Below are positions 1 through 57,803 of a stretch of DNA of 64,000 nucleotides, piece after piece (the first letter of the stretch is position 1; each line of letters opens with the position of its first letter). Source of the stretch: Chitinophagales bacterium (GTDB taxonomy: Bacteria > Bacteroidota > Bacteroidia > Chitinophagales > Saprospiraceae); contig JAAFJN010000008.1 in assembly GCA_013298845.1 (NCBI GenBank), forward strand, positions 67,823 to 131,822, in the 5' to 3' direction. Position numbers and translations under genes: made by a program. The notes beneath the pieces are model-generated. The model ran no database searches. It worked only from the letters and a program-made list of their open reading frames with translations, and was not told where the DNA came from.

Positions 1-450
1 GAGAGGTCGTATATTGGTGTCATTTGTCCGATAAGAGCCACCAATGTACGACCTCTCCGAGGTCAAAAAAACGGCATAACTGCGGATTCTACCAATATTT
101 GACCTCTGCCGAGGTCATAGATAACAGGAAAGCCAAAATTTCGTACATTTTCACCGCACAAAGCGGTTGAATAGTTACAATTTTTTTTGTATGTAATCTA
201 CTGATTTTTGCTCCAATTCAAATTCACGACGCGGATCGGCAGTTCCCAAAAAATCAAAAATATATGGGGGGCAGAAAGTTTGTCAAGTAAGGTAATATTG
301 CTCCGCCAAGGAATTAGTGCAACGCAGCGTTGCACAATCTCAACATAGGGCCACGCCTCGGCAAACGCTTCTCCAACACCTGTCCCTCACCCCCACCGGG
401 AACTTTCCCCATCCACCCCACGTTTACCACCCCGATTAATTTTTTCCACA

Positions 451-51860: not shown

Positions 51861-53012
51861 TTATTCCACGATTAATTTTCGGGTACCAACGCGGCCTTCA
51901 GCGGTGGTCACTTGCACAAAATACAGCCCTTTTTGCCAGGAATCCACTTCAAAAACGGTATTTCCGACAATATTTTGCCGTTGTTGCACCAATTGGCCGT
52001 TGCTGTGGAAAATATGCAACTGGCTAAAATCGCCCTGCACCGTAAATTGTCCGTGCGCGGGATTGGGCGTCATCTCAAACGAAAAAGCGGCGGAAGCAAC
52101 TTCGGCGGACGGACTGAGTTCGTCGAGGCGGTATTTGCTCAGGAAGCGCCAAATTTCGCGACTGGCGTTGATATCCAGGTTGGTGACGCCAATGGGGAAA
52201 AACGCGCCCGGCCAGGTGTGACCACCGCCCAGAATCTTGTACAGTTCTACGGTAGTGCCGTTGTCGCCACCGGTGTATACGTAACGTTCGGCGGTGCAGC
52301 CATCCGTGGTGCTGGTATTGGGTACGTTGATTTGGGCGGGGGTAGGGTTGCAGTTGTTTTTGTCCACCCATTTGTCCACGGCATTTTGAACCGACAAGCC
52401 ATTAACTAAGGTAAGCCCGGTGTAAGGCACAACGTCATCGGCGGTGCCGTGAATGTGCATCACAGGGACGGGCCGAGGCGGGTTACAATTATTCATGTAC
52501 GAATTGGTAATTGTACCCGCCACGGCTGCAATGGCCGCAATCCGGTCGTTTAGTTCGCAGGCCAGCGTATGACTCATAAAACCACCGTTACTAAAACCGG
52601 TGCTGTAGATGCGATTGGCGTCAATGTTGTACAAGGTTTGCAGCGTATCCAGGAGGTTGCGCACGAAACCAATATCATCTACGGCATACGGGCCGTTGAA
52701 CACATTCCAGAACGTACTTCCCTGCGCATCAATGGTTCCATTGGGCAATACAACAAGAAAATTCGCCGTGTCGGCAATGTTGTTAAAATTGGCGTAAATC
52801 TCCTGCTGGAGATTATTAGAGGTGTAGCCGTGAAAGTTCAGCAACAAGGGAACGGGGGTGTTCCCGGTGTAAGAAGCCGGTTTGTAGATTCGGTATTCCC
52901 GCACCAAACCCCCACTGACAATGGTGGCATTCGTGGAGATTTGGGCGGAACTGGTTACGTTAAATATAACTACTAAAAGTAAAGAAAGGATATAATAAGT
53001 GCTATTTTTCAT
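51861..53012 (-). CDS. PHB-depolymerase-family esterase (alpha/beta hydrolase) with T9SS C-terminal domain
   Basis: Signal peptide; nucleophile elbow GFSNGG; T9SS tail (…GLYFVQVTTAEGRVGTRKLIVE). Confidence 0.65.
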   Translation of the reverse strand: MKNSTYYILSLLLVVIFNVTSSAQISTNATIVSGGLVREYRIYKPASYTGNTPVPLLLNFHGYTSNNLQQEIYANFNNIADTANFLVVLPNGTIDAQGSTFWNVFNGPYAVDDIGFVRNLLDTLQTLYNIDANRIYSTGFSNGGFMSHTLACELNDRIAAIAAVAGTITNSYMNNCNPPRPVPVMHIHGTADDVVPYTGLTLVNGLSVQNAVDKWVDKNNCNPTPAQINVPNTSTTDGCTAERYVYTGGDNGTTVELYKILGGGHTWPGAFFPIGVTNLDINASREIWRFLSKYRLDELSPSAEVASAAFSFEMTPNPAHGQFTVQGDFSQLHIFHSNGQLVQQRQNIVGNTVFEVDSWQKGLYFVQVTTAEGRVGTRKLIVE

Positions 53013-53035
53013 GCCCTAAAATTAAGGCATTTTTG

Positions 53036-53470
53036 TCAATACCCGGTAATATATTGCTCCAAACTTTGGATTCGGCCTTCTTGCTCTTTAATAATGGCCG
53101 TTACAATATCGCTGATACTCAGGATGCCAACAATTTTCCCGTCCATACTCACGGGCAGGTGCCGAATGCGTTTGGACGACATCATTTCCATACAATCCTG
53201 GATGTTTTGGGTGGCTTTGATGGTAAATACCCCGGCGGTCATCACATCGCTGAGGGTAGTGGTTTTGGCTTTTCGGCCTTGCAAAATACCGCGCCGGGCA
53301 TAATCGCGTTCGGAAAAAATGCCCACCAAATCGGAGCCGTTCATGACCATTACTGCACCGATGTTTTTTTCGGCCATTAATTCGAGGGCTTCGATAACGG
53401 TTTGGTCCGGGTGCATCGCCCATACGTTGTTTTGTGGTTTGCCTTGTAGCAATTGATGTACTGTGAGCAT
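53036..53470 (-). CDS. CBS domain pair protein
   Basis: Two CBS motifs (…AVMVMNGSDLVGIFSERD, …HLPVSMDGKIVGILSISD); ATG at 53470. Confidence 0.8.
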   Translation of the reverse strand: MLTVHQLLQGKPQNNVWAMHPDQTVIEALELMAEKNIGAVMVMNGSDLVGIFSERDYARRGILQGRKAKTTTLSDVMTAGVFTIKATQNIQDCMEMMSSKRIRHLPVSMDGKIVGILSISDIVTAIIKEQEGRIQSLEQYITGY

Positions 53471-53731
53471 AATGTTTCGGTTTATAGATTTTAAAATGAT
53501 GCCGCATTCTACATTTGGCAAAACTACCTTTCGACTGTAAATATATTGCAAGAAAATTTGTTTTTGCAAAATATTTCTTAATTTTTTTTCAAAAAAACTT
53601 TTTTTGGTATTTTGGGGGAATATTTTTTTGGCGAAAAGCCTAAAATTTATTTTTTGTTTGGCGAGAAAAGAATGATTTATCTTCGCCGGGATAGAAACAC
53701 ATCACTCACAACGTAACCTGTCCCGCGTACC

Positions 53732-54649
53732 ATGTTCCAACTCGATACTACTTCATTTGGCCCGTACACCCTATATACAATTAGTCACCCGGCCAGTGGC
53801 CACCGTTTTTCGGTAGTGCCCGAAAAAGGCGGCACTTTGCTCGATTTGTGGTTTCACGGAGCCTCGGTATTGGACGGATACGCCACGCCGGAGGAGTTAG
53901 ACGAAGCCAAGTGGGGCAAATCGGCCATTTTATTTCCGTTCCCCAACCGCCTGCGGGATGGTAGTTACACTTGGCAGGGCAACGAGTACCAGTTTCCCAT
54001 CAACAACGCCGCTACGGGCAACGCCATTCACGGGTTTGCCCGGCAGTTTCCTTTTCAAATCACCGATATCACCACTACTGAACACGAAGGCGGTTGTACC
54101 CTGGTATTCGATTACGACGGGCATTTGCCGTATTATCCGTTCGCCTGCCGTTTGGATGTGCGGTTTGTGCTGAGCAGCGACGGTGTTTTTAGCACCACCG
54201 TGCGCATGGAAAACAAACACCAAGCGGCCATTCCCGCCGGGTTTGGCTGGCACCCGTATTTCCGCCTCAGCCCCGATGCGGTGGATAGTTCCGCTTTTTC
54301 GCTCACGGCCTGCCAAAAAGTGGGCATTGACGAGCGTATGATTCCCACCGGCGACCGCAGCACCTACGATACTTTTGTAACCGAAAAAGGGATTACCGAT
54401 ACGGTATTGGACAATTGTTTTTACTTCGAGAACGATATTACGGCGGTATTGCGGCACGGCGACCGCACCTTGCGCATGGACGTTCCGGCGGCGCAGTTCC
54501 CGTATTTTCAGGTATTTACGCCCCCGCACCGCACCAGTGTGGCGTTTGAACCCATGACCTGCAACATCAATGCTTTTAACAATGGCGATGGTTTATTACA
54601 CCTCGAAGCGGGTGAAGTTTGGGAGGGGACATTTGTTTGTCGGGGGTAG
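53732..54649 (+). CDS. aldose 1-epimerase (galactose mutarotase-like) family protein
   Basis: Mutarotase-like His/Glu pattern (…HGF ... GWHPYF ... FEPMT). Confidence 0.65.
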   Translation: MFQLDTTSFGPYTLYTISHPASGHRFSVVPEKGGTLLDLWFHGASVLDGYATPEELDEAKWGKSAILFPFPNRLRDGSYTWQGNEYQFPINNAATGNAIHGFARQFPFQITDITTTEHEGGCTLVFDYDGHLPYYPFACRLDVRFVLSSDGVFSTTVRMENKHQAAIPAGFGWHPYFRLSPDAVDSSAFSLTACQKVGIDERMIPTGDRSTYDTFVTEKGITDTVLDNCFYFENDITAVLRHGDRTLRMDVPAAQFPYFQVFTPPHRTSVAFEPMTCNINAFNNGDGLLHLEAGEVWEGTFVCRG

Positions 54650-54728
54650 TGGATTTTTTTTAGAAAAAATGGAACCAAAAACCTTCAACAATGTTACCTA
54701 ATTAGGTACCTTTGTATAAAATTAAACG

Positions 54729-54968
54729 TATGCCGGAGATTGACAGAATATCAGGTATTCGCATCTGCGTATTTAGCCGCGATCATCTACCACCTCATTT
54801 TCATGCTTTTTTGGCGAATACGAAGCTTTGATTAGCATTCGAGAGGGTAGTATCATTGCGGGGGAACTCCCTCGCAAAAAACTACGTCAGACACTGGAAT
54901 ACCTTGAACAGAATCAGGGTGATCTTTTAGAGACATTTTATCAGTTGAATCCCTCATTGAGACAGTAA
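54729..54968 (+). pseudogene. DUF4160-family gene disrupted by a frameshift
   Basis: Frame 1 gives MPEIDRISGIRICVFSRDHLPPHFHAFLANTKL then stop at 54828-54830. Another frame continues LISIREGSIIAGELPRKKLRQTLEYLEQNQGDLLETFYQLNPSLRQ with stop at 54966. The combined sequence matches the DUF4160 pattern (DH.PPHFH ... G.LP ... V.EW). Confidence 0.6.
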
Positions 54969-54970
54969 TT

Positions 54971-55561
54971 ATGAAAAATTTGCCAAAAATTTCCCGAATA
55001 GTATCCGTAGCACCATTTACGATTACCTTGCTTTGGAATAACTTCGAAGTGCGAGCACTGGACTTTGAGCCTCTTTTTCAAGTTTGGAAAAAAGATAACG
55101 ACGAGAAAATGGCGGCATTAGAAGACTTTGATACTTTTTCCAAGGTAATTGTCTCCGAAAATCATACCCTGGCGTGGCCAAATATTCCGATTACCTTTAC
55201 CTTTAAAGGGAACGAGTTTGTTTCTCCATTAGAATTGGACGCTCAGGAGTTATACCATCGAAGTGTCCTGGTTGAAAAAATTGATACCCCAAATATTGGG
55301 AAAATCGTACGGCAGGCAAGAGAAAAGGCCGGATTAACGCAATTAGAAGTGGCACTCAATGCGGGTACTACTGCAAAATACATTTCACGACTTGAAAACA
55401 ACAAATCTGATATTCAACTCGGCACCTTGCGCAAAATTGCCGAATTAGGTATGAACCAAAAAATATCTATTATTATTGAAGGGGACTTTCAACCGGGCCA
55501 ATCTTCAAAGCCGAAGCCAAAGCCAAGGAAAAAAGCGACGGCTGATCTTCGTAAAACATGA
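54971..55561 (+). CDS. DUF2442-like N-terminal domain fused to an HTH_XRE DNA-binding domain
   Basis: N-terminal about 90 aa resembles DUF2442 (partner of DUF4160); C-terminal LTQLEVALNAGTTAKYISRLENNKSDIQLGTLRKIA is an XRE-type HTH; AT-rich. Confidence 0.55.
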   Translation: MKNLPKISRIVSVAPFTITLLWNNFEVRALDFEPLFQVWKKDNDEKMAALEDFDTFSKVIVSENHTLAWPNIPITFTFKGNEFVSPLELDAQELYHRSVLVEKIDTPNIGKIVRQAREKAGLTQLEVALNAGTTAKYISRLENNKSDIQLGTLRKIAELGMNQKISIIIEGDFQPGQSSKPKPKPRKKATADLRKT

Positions 55562-55649
55562 GTCTGTTGTTGGGATAAAATAGTTTTTCAGCAAAACTTT
55601 TAAAGATACCCCCAGTTTTCATTTAACTTATCGCTTATTAAACGTTTAG

Positions 55650-57026
55650 ATGGTAACCAAAATATTCATTGACGGCTTCAAATCTTTCCAAAACTTTGAA
55701 TTGGAGTTTGCGCCTTTAACTGTTATTGCCGGAGTGAATGCCTCTGGTAAGAGTAATCTGTTTGATGCCCTGACGTTACTATCTAAATTAGCGGAGGTGG
55801 ATAATATAAAAAAGGCATTTAAAGAGCAACGCGGTGAGTTTTCGGAAATGTTTACCCAAATTGATGAAAATGAATACGCCGATAAGATGGAGTTTAAAGT
55901 GGAAATGTTGGTGAATAAAAAGGTGAAAGACGCGTGGGGAAATGAAGCGACCTTAAAATATACCCGGCTCTGTTATCATCTTGTAATTCAACGCATTATC
56001 AACAATTCAAGTATTGAGGACTTGATTGTTATTGAAGAATCGTTAGACCAAATAAAAAACGAAGGAGATAAATGGCGCAGGCGAATTCCAGAAGAAGTTC
56101 GTGCTGCATGGATTCCTGAAGTAGAAACGGCGAAGCAAGAGGAGCCTTTTATGTTAACAAAGACCGAAAATGGAATTCCAACAGTAACGGTATTTCAAGA
56201 TACCCCCCAAAGTAACAGAAGGCTATTTCCGTTGAAAAACTCCAGCCGAACCGTGCTCAGTAGTTTTGACACCGTTGATTTTCCACACGTATTAGCAGTG
56301 AAGGAAGAGATGAAAAGTTGGAAATTTCTTCAACTTAACCCCGCCGAATTAAGAAAACCAACTTCCAAAGAAACCGGAGAAGATGTAGTTGACTCCAGCG
56401 GAAGAAACTTAGCCGCCGCACTTTATCGAATTAAGCAGGAAGATGCTTATAATTTGATCGAAATTTCGAGAAAATTACAAAAGTTTTTGCCCGAATTTAT
56501 TCGGATTGACGTAGAAGACGATAAAGAAAACAAGCAGTTTGTCGTTAAATTAGAAACCCAAGACCATAAAAAGTACTCTTCCCGTGTATTGTCCGAAGGT
56601 ACGCTCCGAATAATGACCCTTTGTATCCTTGATTTTGACAATAAACACACCGGTTTATTGTGTTTTGAAGAACCTGAAAACGGCGTGCACCTCGATAAAA
56701 TAAAAGATATGGCTGAATTATTGGGCGATTTGAGCACCGATTTTACTAATGCCAACTTGCCGCTGCGCCAAGTCATTATCAATACCCATTCTTCCGCCTT
56801 GTTGAATCTATCCAGTAAAATAGAAAACAACAATAAAACCATTATCTATTACGCTGAGATGCAAAATAGAATTATTGACATTGCCAACAAGCGAAGAAAA
56901 ATTAAAATAACCAATATGAAACTGGTGGAAGATAAAGATATGCTGTTATTCGATAGTATGGATGAGAATGAGCAAAAAATCACCAAAGCATTAGCCAAAA
57001 AATATTTAGAAACTTCAACATTTTAA
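55650..57026 (+). CDS. ABC-type AAA family ATPase (AAA_15/AAA_21, OLD/RecF-like)
   Basis: Walker A GVNASGKSN at N-terminus, ABC signature LSEGTLRIM, Walker B LLCFEEPE, H-loop NTHS; 458 aa; AT-rich. Confidence 0.8.
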   Translation: MVTKIFIDGFKSFQNFELEFAPLTVIAGVNASGKSNLFDALTLLSKLAEVDNIKKAFKEQRGEFSEMFTQIDENEYADKMEFKVEMLVNKKVKDAWGNEATLKYTRLCYHLVIQRIINNSSIEDLIVIEESLDQIKNEGDKWRRRIPEEVRAAWIPEVETAKQEEPFMLTKTENGIPTVTVFQDTPQSNRRLFPLKNSSRTVLSSFDTVDFPHVLAVKEEMKSWKFLQLNPAELRKPTSKETGEDVVDSSGRNLAAALYRIKQEDAYNLIEISRKLQKFLPEFIRIDVEDDKENKQFVVKLETQDHKKYSSRVLSEGTLRIMTLCILDFDNKHTGLLCFEEPENGVHLDKIKDMAELLGDLSTDFTNANLPLRQVIINTHSSALLNLSSKIENNNKTIIYYAEMQNRIIDIANKRRKIKITNMKLVEDKDMLLFDSMDENEQKITKALAKKYLETSTF

Positions 57027-57032
57027 GGCAAT

Positions 57033-57704
57033 ATGGCTGCGCAAATTTTCATTGGCATCTTTGCCGAAGGCACTACCGACCTTGCATTTTTAGAGCCTGT
57101 TGTCGAAAAAACATTTAACGATATACTTTATCGTGAATGCCAAGGGGTGTACGATCCAATCATTGAAAAGATCATGATTACTAAAACAGGAAAAAGTTTT
57201 ATAGAACAAGTGGAAGCCGCGTCTCAACAAGGCTTTGATGAGTTTGGAATGATGATTCTTTGCGTGCACACGGATGCAGATGCCCCCTCGGCGGCAGACA
57301 CCTATGCGCACAAAATAACCCCAATGCTCCATCAACTCACAGCGTTGGACACCTCCGAATATTGCAAAAACATCGTTCCAATTATTCCCATTTATGAAAC
57401 GGAGTCCTGGATGTTGGCCGATAAGTCCTTGTTTAAAGAACAGATTGGAACGGACAAAAGTGATGCCGACCTTGGTATTTCGGGAAACCCTGAACATTTA
57501 AACCAACCCAAGGAGGCCATTGAAAATGCTATCCGTCTGGCACTGGAAAACTATCCTAAAAGACGACGCAATCTGACAATAAGAGATTTGTATAGTCCAA
57601 TCGGCGCGGCTTTGACCGTTAGTGAATTAGAGCCATTCTCTTCGTTTCAAGATTTTAAAAACCACGCACGCACGGCATTACGCGCTCTCAATGTCTTGCA
57701 TTAA
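57033..57704 (+). CDS. Toprim-like small protein (DUF4276-like) forming an operon with the ATPase
   Basis: 6-nt gap after the ATPase gene; IFAEGTTD (EGxxD) near the N-terminus and HTDADAP (DxD) about 60 aa later resemble Toprim catalytic motifs. Confidence 0.55.
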   Translation: MAAQIFIGIFAEGTTDLAFLEPVVEKTFNDILYRECQGVYDPIIEKIMITKTGKSFIEQVEAASQQGFDEFGMMILCVHTDADAPSAADTYAHKITPMLHQLTALDTSEYCKNIVPIIPIYETESWMLADKSLFKEQIGTDKSDADLGISGNPEHLNQPKEAIENAIRLALENYPKRRRNLTIRDLYSPIGAALTVSELEPFSSFQDFKNHARTALRALNVLH

Positions 57705-57803
57705 AAACGATTGCGCCCACACATTCCCCGCCGCTACACAATCTACTCCAAAAACTACCAATTCTTTCGTACTTTTGCGACCCGAAACTTCTAACAGGTT
57801 CAC

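Follow-up and report, generated by a model that had tools for sequence, protein, structure and literature searches.

The two adjacent genes analysed here are, as judged from profile matches and gene order, a copy of HEC-01, a candidate anti-phage system that had been catalogued before. The pair is probably a stand-alone HEC-01 cassette, i.e. a horizontally mobile operon that would encode an effector controlled by an ATPase in the manner of the OLD and PARIS systems. Given that it belongs to the catalogued HEC-01, it represents a further member of a known, poorly understood family and not something new. For the window, by which we mean the whole stretch of 64,000 nucleotides that was analysed, the outcome is mainly that a candidate system already in the catalogue is now annotated correctly.

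Assignment of the gene pair to HEC-01

An earlier sequence-only reading had called two open reading frames of 458 and 223 aa, separated by 6 nt, and had described them as an ABC-type ATPase followed by a DUF4276-like protein. Both frames were recovered as called (Table 1), with 6 nt between the stop of the first and the start of the second, and both domain assignments were confirmed with Pfam: the ATPase matched AAA_21 (7.5e-25) and AAA_15 (8.6e-17) and the smaller protein matched DUF4276 (6e-10; 40.1 bits with a cut-off of 30.2). A system name, which the reading could not give, was supplied by the PADLOC check it had suggested. The ATPase matched the HEC-01A model PDLC04184 over nearly its full length (E 5.8e-131, 435.7 bits; residues 1-455 of 458, profile positions 1-459 of 464) and the partner matched the HEC-01B model PDLC04212 (E 1.4e-66, 222.7 bits; residues 3-223, profile positions 2-222 of 222). 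The pair thus combines three features of HEC-01: a match to the A model, a match to the B model and adjacency on the same strand.

Table 1. Features of the HEC-01 locus, in positions of the window
Feature	Position	Strand	Description
HEC-01A	55650..57026	+	458-aa ORF; ABC-type (AAA_21/AAA_15) ATPase, presumed sensor/regulator
HEC-01B	57033..57704	+	223-aa ORF; DUF4276, Toprim-like putative metal-dependent nuclease effector
AT-rich accessory segment	54650..57752	.	Contains the HEC-01 pair and two small upstream genes
196-aa HTH protein	54971..55561	+	XRE-type HTH, C-terminal
DUF4160 gene, frameshifted	54730..54968	+	Probable pseudogene

The catalytic motifs were read from the sequence where they had been claimed, and they are invariant in the homologues. 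In HEC-01A these are the Walker A element GVNASGKS (28-35, with G28, G33, K34 and S35), the signature LSEGT (314-318), the Walker B element LLCFEE (336-341) and the H-loop histidine H380 within NTHS, which are all conserved across four homologues. HEC-01B contains an EGxxD motif (E12-G13-T-T-D16) and a DxD motif (D81-A-D83), and the residues E12, G13, D16, D81, D83 and E124 are invariant in 46 homologues.

HEC-01, or Hma-embedded candidate 01, was defined by Payne et al. and is included in PADLOC-DB (10.1101/2024.01.29.577857). The description given by these authors, an ABC ATPase plus a TOPRIM protein with a conserved metal site (10.1101/2024.01.29.577857), supports the earlier proposal of a split module with OLD-type logic. 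The architecture is shared, in that the ABC ATPase gene is immediately followed by the gene for the DUF4276/TOPRIM-like protein. However, HEC-01 as discovered resides inside Hma loci, whereas the present copy stands alone between housekeeping genes of an uncultured Saprospirales-like bacterium. The HEC-01 representative included in the E. coli screen of Payne et al. protected against none of the phages in the panel (10.1101/2024.01.29.577857); a second study reports protection of E. coli B by one representative, effective against one or more of the phages T7, T5 and T4 (10.1101/2024.09.26.614923), but provides no HEC-01 detail. The wider family is sizeable, with 1882 representatives at 50% clustering.

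Comparison with other ATPase and Toprim systems

The closest mechanistic template is PARIS, in which a sensor ATPase releases a nuclease and which is likewise a two-gene operon for an AAA_15/21 ABC ATPase (AriA) and a separate small Toprim-type protein (AriB; PMC11464382). The present ATPase matched the AriA models in part (4.7e-26, residues 169-386), but its match to HEC-01A is around a hundred orders of magnitude better. Moreover, the PARIS effector AriB is a DUF4435 protein, whereas the effector here is a DUF4276 protein that matched neither the PADLOC model of AriB nor DUF4435 of Pfam. Considering the partial AriA match and the lack of AriB, PARIS was ruled out as the identity of the pair.

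A DUF4276 protein is also combined with an AAA family ATPase (NCBIfam name) in Mad4 and Mad3 of MADS (10.1101/2023.03.30.534895; PMC12065111), and MADS3-4 has been placed among the ABC ATPase plus TOPRIM systems (PMC11464382). The present ATPase matched mad3 weakly (PADLOC 7.2e-23; NCBIfam MAD3 146 bits with a cut-off of 420), HEC-01B did not match the PADLOC model of mad4, and none of the domains of the other mad genes was found among the neighbours; mad6-8 are mandatory in the model of the MADS authors (10.1101/2023.03.30.534895). With MAD3 below its cut-off and both a mad4 match and the remaining mad genes lacking, MADS was discarded.

The OLD nucleases, both of class 1 (P2 Old) and of class 2 (BpOLD and GajA of Gabija), are fused polypeptides, whereas the present pair consists of two separate reading frames. 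The GajA and Old models matched only residues 2-59 and 2-77 of the ATPase, respectively (about 1e-11 to 1e-12), and no gene for a GajB-type helicase adjoins the pair. Gabija and class 1 or 2 OLD were rejected on the basis of the unfused frames, the restriction of the match to the N-terminus and the missing helicase. AbiL was ruled out as well, for the ATPase resembled AbiLi weakly (1.6e-17) and HEC-01B did not match AbiLii. The same holds for Menshen (NsnABC), in which DUF4276 is among the C-terminal domains of NsnC and is a predicted effector domain (PMC12065111), whereas it forms a free-standing protein here; the ATPase matched NsnB weakly (1.4e-20), and the genes for NsnA and NsnC are absent from the neighbourhood.

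The relation of HEC-01B to the Toprim fold

The DUF4276 family has been classed as Toprim, with Mad4 as a DUF4276 homologue (PMC12065111), and the cited literature reports no biochemical activity for any DUF4276 protein. The predicted structure of HEC-01B (pLDDT 96.3) contains a beta-alpha-beta-alpha-beta-alpha-beta core. In this model strand 1 (residues 3-11) runs into E12 and strand 3 (residues 75-79) precedes the DxD motif, and together with the 46 aligned sequences this conforms to the Toprim-type layout of a glutamate that ends strand 1 and a DxD that follows strand 3. The predicted Toprim-like character of the protein was therefore borne out as far as the invariant acids and their expected topological positions are concerned, but Toprim was not singled out by the fold searches. 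Foldseek against PDB and BFVD gave no significant match. At the sequence level, profile A1 gave a single chance-level match among the PDB sequences and no solved relative.

Profile comparisons yielded a weak bridge. Thirteen of the 46 HEC-01B members matched DUF3226 (best 0.0013) and one matched OLD-like_TOPRIM (0.12), while the Toprim domain of P2 Old itself matched DUF3226 at 0.025. Direct alignment of the HEC-01B family with P2 Old by hhalign gave a probability of 0.8%, a value obtained with a shallow Old profile, as a search with the C-terminal region of P2 Old had returned only 5 fragments and the viral contigs 9 close Old relatives with 73-100% identity. Relatives of HEC-01B were found neither on viral contigs nor in PHROGs.

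Genomic setting, distribution and divergence

The HEC-01 pair looks like mobile accessory DNA. As the sequence-only reading had it, the pair lies in an AT-rich stretch (GC 0.397 for 54650-57750 versus 0.483 for the whole window) between an aldose epimerase gene and gldA: the 5' flank encodes an Aldose_epim protein (Pfam 3.3e-46) and the 3' flank an ABC_tran protein whose close homologues carry the name GldA. The left edge of the segment was set from composition only, while the right edge was mapped from the point (57752-57804) at which relatives without the pair become homologous at the nucleotide level. The called neighbours comprise the aldose epimerase, the HTH protein, GldA and GldF; the locus is set among housekeeping genes and not in a defence island. 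Within 53000-58500 an Rfam scan gave no match at E<=0.1. When the flanks were searched for direct repeats and att-like sites, only short pairs at chance level appeared, and the promoter and terminator scan gave counts not clearly above the shuffled expectation.

All loci examined (L011-L018) have an AAA_21 ATPase gene immediately 5' of the gene for the DUF4276 protein, the distance between the two genes ranging from an overlap of 1 nt to a gap of 6 nt, and the identities of HEC-01A and HEC-01B co-vary across the genomes compared. The neighbourhoods are unrelated between lineages, and in 4 genomes the GC content of the pair is lower than that of its flanks. Empty sites were looked for via the GldA homologues and their contigs. 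It had been set beforehand that conserved synteny would mark a housekeeping locus; upstream of gldA the pair is missing from relatives whose GldA is 83-90% identical, and it is therefore not a conserved housekeeping locus. A scan of genome contigs with the aldose epimerase, also directed at empty sites, returned only two distant and non-syntenic Saprospiraceae loci (35-38% identity). An aldose epimerase gene adjoins the pair both here and in Bacteroides, but co-transfer of the two was rejected because these epimerases share no more than 24% identity.

In a near-identical relative (GldA 98.4% and GldF 99.6% identical) the identity of HEC-01B amounts to only 85.7%. The dS of the pair in this comparison is 0.51-0.71 versus 0.18-0.23 for the flanks, so that the pair has diverged 2.5-4 times as much as the adjacent genes at synonymous sites. 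The dN/dS of 0.10-0.16 implies that both HEC-01 genes are kept under purifying selection.

These data also bear on the idea that the pair serves DNA repair as a housekeeping function, in analogy to the ABC-type ATPase RecF and to RecR, which contains a Toprim domain. The N-terminus of HEC-01A indeed resembles RecF weakly (TIGR00611 8.1e-8, 31.8 bits with a cut-off of 172; PDB RecF 2.8e-4), but these matches span only the N-terminal ~100 residues, including Walker A, and stay far under the cut-off, and such a role is very improbable considering the absence of the pair upstream of gldA in close relatives, its AT-richness relative to the flanks, its raised synonymous divergence and the variation of its neighbourhood by lineage.

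Proposed function and alternative explanations

By analogy, HEC-01A would most likely act as a sensor ATPase that controls HEC-01B, the putative effector nuclease of Toprim-like type. HEC-01A and HEC-01B would be co-expressed from one operon, and an oligomer of the ATPase would keep the DUF4276 protein inactive, as in OLD-like systems and in PARIS above all. The ATPase may then sense a phage-derived trigger, upon which binding or hydrolysis of ATP would release or activate the effector. With Mg2+ or Mn2+ bound by E12, D81 and D83 the effector would cut nucleic acid, for which tRNA (as for AriB) and DNA (as for OLD and GajA) are the candidate substrates, and phage production would be halted while the growth of the infected cell is sacrificed. 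Several observations count against this reading: the negative screen of Payne et al., the lack of a solved relative for profile A1, the low hhalign probability with P2 Old, the lack of a reported activity for DUF4276 proteins in the cited literature and the position of the locus outside a defence island. A more far-reaching version, which we put forward tentatively and do not favour outright, is that stand-alone HEC-01 cassettes form an autonomous PARIS-like abortive infection system, in which an ATPase cage would release a Toprim-type nuclease and for which a DUF4276 effector, not DUF4435, would have been recruited independently. They might then constitute a further OLD-like split class, and phage-driven swapping of alleles could underlie the strong divergence at synonymous sites in a fixed chromosomal position.

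Alternatively, the pair could be a selfish addiction cassette of the toxin-antitoxin kind, with HEC-01B as toxic nuclease and HEC-01A as its neutraliser, which would persist because its loss is harmful and would have no specific anti-phage role. The negative outcome of the original screen (10.1101/2024.01.29.577857) is in line with this, as are the patchy distribution, AT-richness and mobility of the pair and its position in the AT-rich segment beside another small module, composed of the frameshifted DUF4160 gene and the HTH gene. However, phage protection has been reported once (10.1101/2024.09.26.614923), deletion of the related mad3 or mad4 lowers MADS defence (10.1101/2023.03.30.534895), and the ATPase, with its 458 aa and its catalytic motifs intact, is of much greater complexity than a simple antitoxin. 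We therefore consider an addiction role on its own unlikely; addiction and defence are nevertheless compatible and not mutually exclusive.

Still less likely is an orphaned accessory module of an Hma- or MADS-type methylation-associated system, which would be inert without its missing partner genes. The first finding of HEC-01 inside Hma loci (10.1101/2024.01.29.577857), the functioning of the homologous Mad3/Mad4 within the eight-gene MADS operon (10.1101/2023.03.30.534895) and the sub-threshold MAD3 match all agree with such an origin. Yet the pair occurs alone, with no gene for a methyltransferase or helicase among the called neighbours in all five types of neighbourhood that were examined, the purifying selection applies to the stand-alone setting, and the authors that defined the family retained a candidate only if it was common outside Hma loci as well (10.1101/2024.01.29.577857).

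If HEC-01 is a working defence, the locus adds an example that stands alone and is fixed in the chromosome, in a gliding and uncultured lineage of Bacteroidota (Saprospirales-like), and together with the diverged allele of the near-identical relative it would provide a natural pair to find the residues that determine phage specificity. Given the size of the family, the lack of a solved structure detectable by sequence and the lack of an activity in the cited literature, one clear biochemical result for any member would annotate thousands of genes.

The small genes upstream of the pair

The two small genes in the AT-rich segment had been read as a DUF4160/DUF2442-XRE pair, which was upheld in part. 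The 196-aa protein matched HTH_3 (2.2e-11, residues 113-158), but the DUF2442 assignment could not be confirmed because its N-terminal half (110 aa) has no Pfam match even at E<=1. No HTH gene was found directly 5' of the pair in the loci with a readable upstream side (L011-L017); the HTH gene is a neighbour within the AT-rich segment and not a conserved partner of HEC-01. A perfect 14-nt palindrome is located upstream of the DUF4160 gene, and no significant second copy was found. DUF4160 itself was recognized, but the reading frame is broken by a frameshift at a run of six T residues (54808-54813) into fragments 54730-54831 and 54831-54968, which matched positions 1-20 (3.3e-4) and 29-63 (5.5e-5) of the profile, respectively. 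The gene is probably a pseudogene, and two other assemblies carry exactly this frameshifted sequence.

Identity of the gene pair

Both ORFs described in the sequence-only reading were recovered at the same coordinates and in the same orientation, with 6 nt between the stop codon of the ATPase gene and the start of the next (TAA-GGCAAT-ATG). The full set of ABC motifs claimed for the 458-aa ATPase is present, and none of them varies when the protein is aligned with three homologues from other genomes. The EGxxD and DxD motifs of the 223-aa protein were likewise found (E12-G-T-T-D16 and D81-A-D83), and within an alignment of 46 homologues (identity 39-86%) the residues E12, G13, D16, D81, D83, E124, W126 and D130 are invariant. 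The Pfam search matched the large protein to AAA_21 (7.5e-25) and AAA_15 (8.6e-17) and the small protein to DUF4276 (6e-10; 40.1 bits vs a cut-off of 30.2).

Coordinates of the genes, motifs and predicted structural elements (all genes in window positions)
Feature	Position	Strand	Basis or remark
DUF4160 gene, frameshifted	54730-54968	+	T6 run at 54808-54813
196-aa HTH protein gene	54971-55561	+	XRE-type HTH at residues 113-158
HEC-01A, 458-aa ABC-type ATPase	55650..57026	+	ORF; Pfam; PADLOC
HEC-01A Walker A GVNASGKS	residues 28-35		
HEC-01A signature LSEGT	residues 314-318		
HEC-01A Walker B LLCFEE	residues 336-341		
HEC-01A H-loop	H380		
HEC-01B, 223-aa DUF4276 protein	57033..57704	+	ORF; Pfam; PADLOC
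HEC-01B strand, then helix	residues 3-11, 14-35		AlphaFold2 model
HEC-01B strand, then helix	residues 40-46, 56-71		AlphaFold2 model
HEC-01B strand, then helix	residues 75-79, 88-103		AlphaFold2 model
HEC-01B strand	residues 114-117		AlphaFold2 model

The first interpretation proved correct in its essentials, as did its remark that sequence alone did not suffice to name the pair; the name came via PADLOC-DB, in which the proteins match HEC-01A (PDLC04184; 5.8e-131, residues 1-455) and HEC-01B (PDLC04212; 1.4e-66, residues 3-223) of Hma-embedded candidate 01 (HEC-01). All remaining ATPase models scored far below HEC-01A: PDC-M07A (about 1e-31), AriA (4.7e-26, partial), mad3 (7.2e-23), NsnB (1.4e-20), AbiLi (1.6e-17), and GajA and Old (about 1e-11 to 1e-12, N-terminus only). 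In the same database the small protein matched HEC-01B models only, plus weakly PDC-M25B and PDC-M31B, and the AriB, mad4 and Old models gave no match. Several related systems were rejected: PARIS, as the DUF4435 effector is lacking; MADS, as the NCBIfam MAD3 score of the ATPase is 146 bits at a cut-off of 420 and the other mad genes are absent; Gabija and OLD, as the ATPase and the Toprim-like protein are not fused and GajB is absent; and AbiL and Menshen, whose defining features the pair does not show. Judged by all the criteria that can be applied to sequence, the pair is a member of HEC-01. The family is already catalogued as a candidate, and the locus is a further instance and not a new kind.

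Payne et al. introduced HEC-01 as an ABC ATPase plus a TOPRIM protein, found inside Hma systems and common elsewhere too; in their analysis HEC-01B resembles TOPRIM proteins in structure and has a conserved metal site (10.1101/2024.01.29.577857).

Is HEC-01B a Toprim protein?

A published classification places DUF4276 in Toprim and recognises Mad4 of MADS as homologous (PMC12065111); the positions described there as defining Toprim are those at which E12 and D81/D83 lie. In a confident AlphaFold2 model (pLDDT 96.3, pTM 0.91), for which the alignment of 46 sequences served as input, E12 directly follows strand 1 and D81/D83 directly follow strand 3, while the C-terminal half is helical. A Foldseek search with this model gave no match at E<=0.001 in PDB or BFVD, the family profile found no solved relative by sequence, and profile comparison with the Toprim region of P2 Old, for which the alignment is shallow, gave no signal. 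Weak matches to Pfam DUF3226 were obtained for 13 of the 46 family members (best 0.0013) and to OLD-like_TOPRIM for one (0.12); the P2 Old Toprim region also matches DUF3226 (0.025), which gives a weak transitive link. The proposed Toprim-like nature of the small protein therefore stands as regards its acidic motifs, which lie at Toprim positions in the model, but structure comparison was not Toprim-specific. A Toprim-like metal-binding fold is supported by motif position and by the published analysis, short of independent proof.

Distribution and divergence

The exact HEC-01B protein is recorded only in assemblies of the source organism; the next relatives share 92% and 86% identity, after which identity drops to about 50% across the Bacteroidota. 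A full HMMER scan recovered 1882 representatives of the family at E<=1e-3 and 843 at E<=1e-10, and the matches listed were free-standing proteins about 220 aa long or fragments shorter than that. Searches of viral contigs, PHROGs and BFVD recovered no relative. All loci examined have an AAA_21 ATPase (461-474 aa) encoded directly before the DUF4276 gene, the two genes either overlapping by 1 nt or being separated by up to 6 nt, and the identities of the two proteins covary among the genomes compared. The surrounding genes are unrelated between lineages (SusCD, aldose epimerase and GH32 in gut Bacteroides; SHMT with beta-lactamase or sugar epimerase in two other genomes), and the GC content of the pair is below that of its flanks in 4/4 genomes (0.33-0.40 vs 0.40-0.48). 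An aldose 1-epimerase gene is directly upstream of the pair in gut Bacteroides contigs (L011-L015, 4603-7672) and also precedes the AT-rich segment holding the pair in the window (53732-57704). Co-transfer with the pair was rejected: at only 24% identity between the two epimerases, the adjacency looks coincidental.

Conserved housekeeping synteny, which would have contradicted the defence interpretation, was not found. Relatives with 83-90% GldA identity keep the gldA-gldF-amidohydrolase-Rv0495c-like block and lack HEC-01 upstream of gldA, where proS or another gene is located; their nucleotide homology to the window starts at 57752-57804, just beyond the HEC-01B stop codon. In those with 83-85% GldA identity (L005-L008, compared with the window from 57804 onward) proS, encoding prolyl-tRNA synthetase, is directly upstream of gldA, which makes the upstream junction of gldA a point of rearrangement in this lineage.

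A near-identical relative (L029, 1-4092 vs window 56546-60668) carries the pair at the same site, and there GldA and GldF are 98.4% and 99.6% identical, whereas the HEC-01 genes are only 86-87% identical (HEC-01B 85.7%). Between these two genomes dS is 0.51-0.71 for the HEC-01 genes vs 0.18-0.23 for gldA and gldF (2.5-4 times), and the HEC-01 alleles are therefore older than their flanks, which suggests allele exchange or replacement at a fixed site. The dN/dS of 0.10-0.16 implies that purifying selection acts on the HEC-01 genes and that they are functional. Two related genomes (L016 and L017, 4083-7672) show the same rapid divergence at a conserved site: they share a CLC channel-SHMT-HEC-01 synteny, and their SHMT proteins are 94% but their HEC-01A proteins only 72% identical.

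Putative function

By sequence, the ABC ATPase is intact and the small protein has an acidic triad that does not vary among homologues; together they form a tightly coupled, co-varying, accessory and selectively maintained unit. The PARIS paper places MADS3-4 and AbiL with the ABC ATPase plus TOPRIM systems (PMC11464382), and deletion of mad3 or mad4 weakens MADS defence (10.1101/2023.03.30.534895). By analogy with PARIS, which the pair would resemble most in its mode of working, and other OLD-like systems (PMC11464382), the ATPase may sense a phage cue and control the DUF4276 protein, which would cut nucleic acid with a bound divalent metal and so arrest the infected cell. The representative of Payne et al. 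protected against none of the phages tested (10.1101/2024.01.29.577857); a later study reports protection of E. coli B by one representative against T7, T5 or T4, at least one of them (10.1101/2024.09.26.614923), and HEC-01 still counts as an unvalidated candidate in a 2026 paper (PMC12853721). The pair might instead be an addiction cassette that plays no specific part against phages. The alternative of an accessory module orphaned from a methylation-associated system is at odds with its stand-alone contexts and with the purifying selection, and a RecF/RecR-like repair pair does not fit the patchy, AT-rich and fast-diverging distribution.

The AT-rich segment

The reported AT-rich stretch is real (GC 0.397 over 54650-57750 vs 0.483 for the whole window), as are its flanks, i.e. 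an aldose 1-epimerase gene upstream (3.3e-46) and downstream an ABC transporter ATPase gene, whose close homologues in Saprospiraceae and Lewinellaceae genomes bear the name GldA, followed by an ABC-2 permease gene. The neighbours of the pair in the window are housekeeping genes and not other defence systems. The DUF4160/DUF2442-XRE pair was retained in part: DUF4160 and an XRE-type HTH are present, but the former is frameshifted, and the DUF2442 label is unconfirmed since Pfam offers no match, even at E<=1, for the first 110 residues of the 196-aa HTH protein. The DUF4160 pieces match profile positions 1-20 and 29-63, and one added T restores a typical intact reading frame. The split sequence also occurs in two other assemblies of the same organism, which makes a genuine pseudogene or a variant in homopolymer length probable. 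In the other genomes examined, HEC-01 pairs do not have the HTH gene directly upstream. At 54695-54708, just 5' of the DUF4160 start, is a perfect 14-nt palindrome, TACCTAATTAGGTA, which could be a candidate operator for the HTH protein; a copy with 2 mismatches occurs at 55438-55451, a count not above chance.
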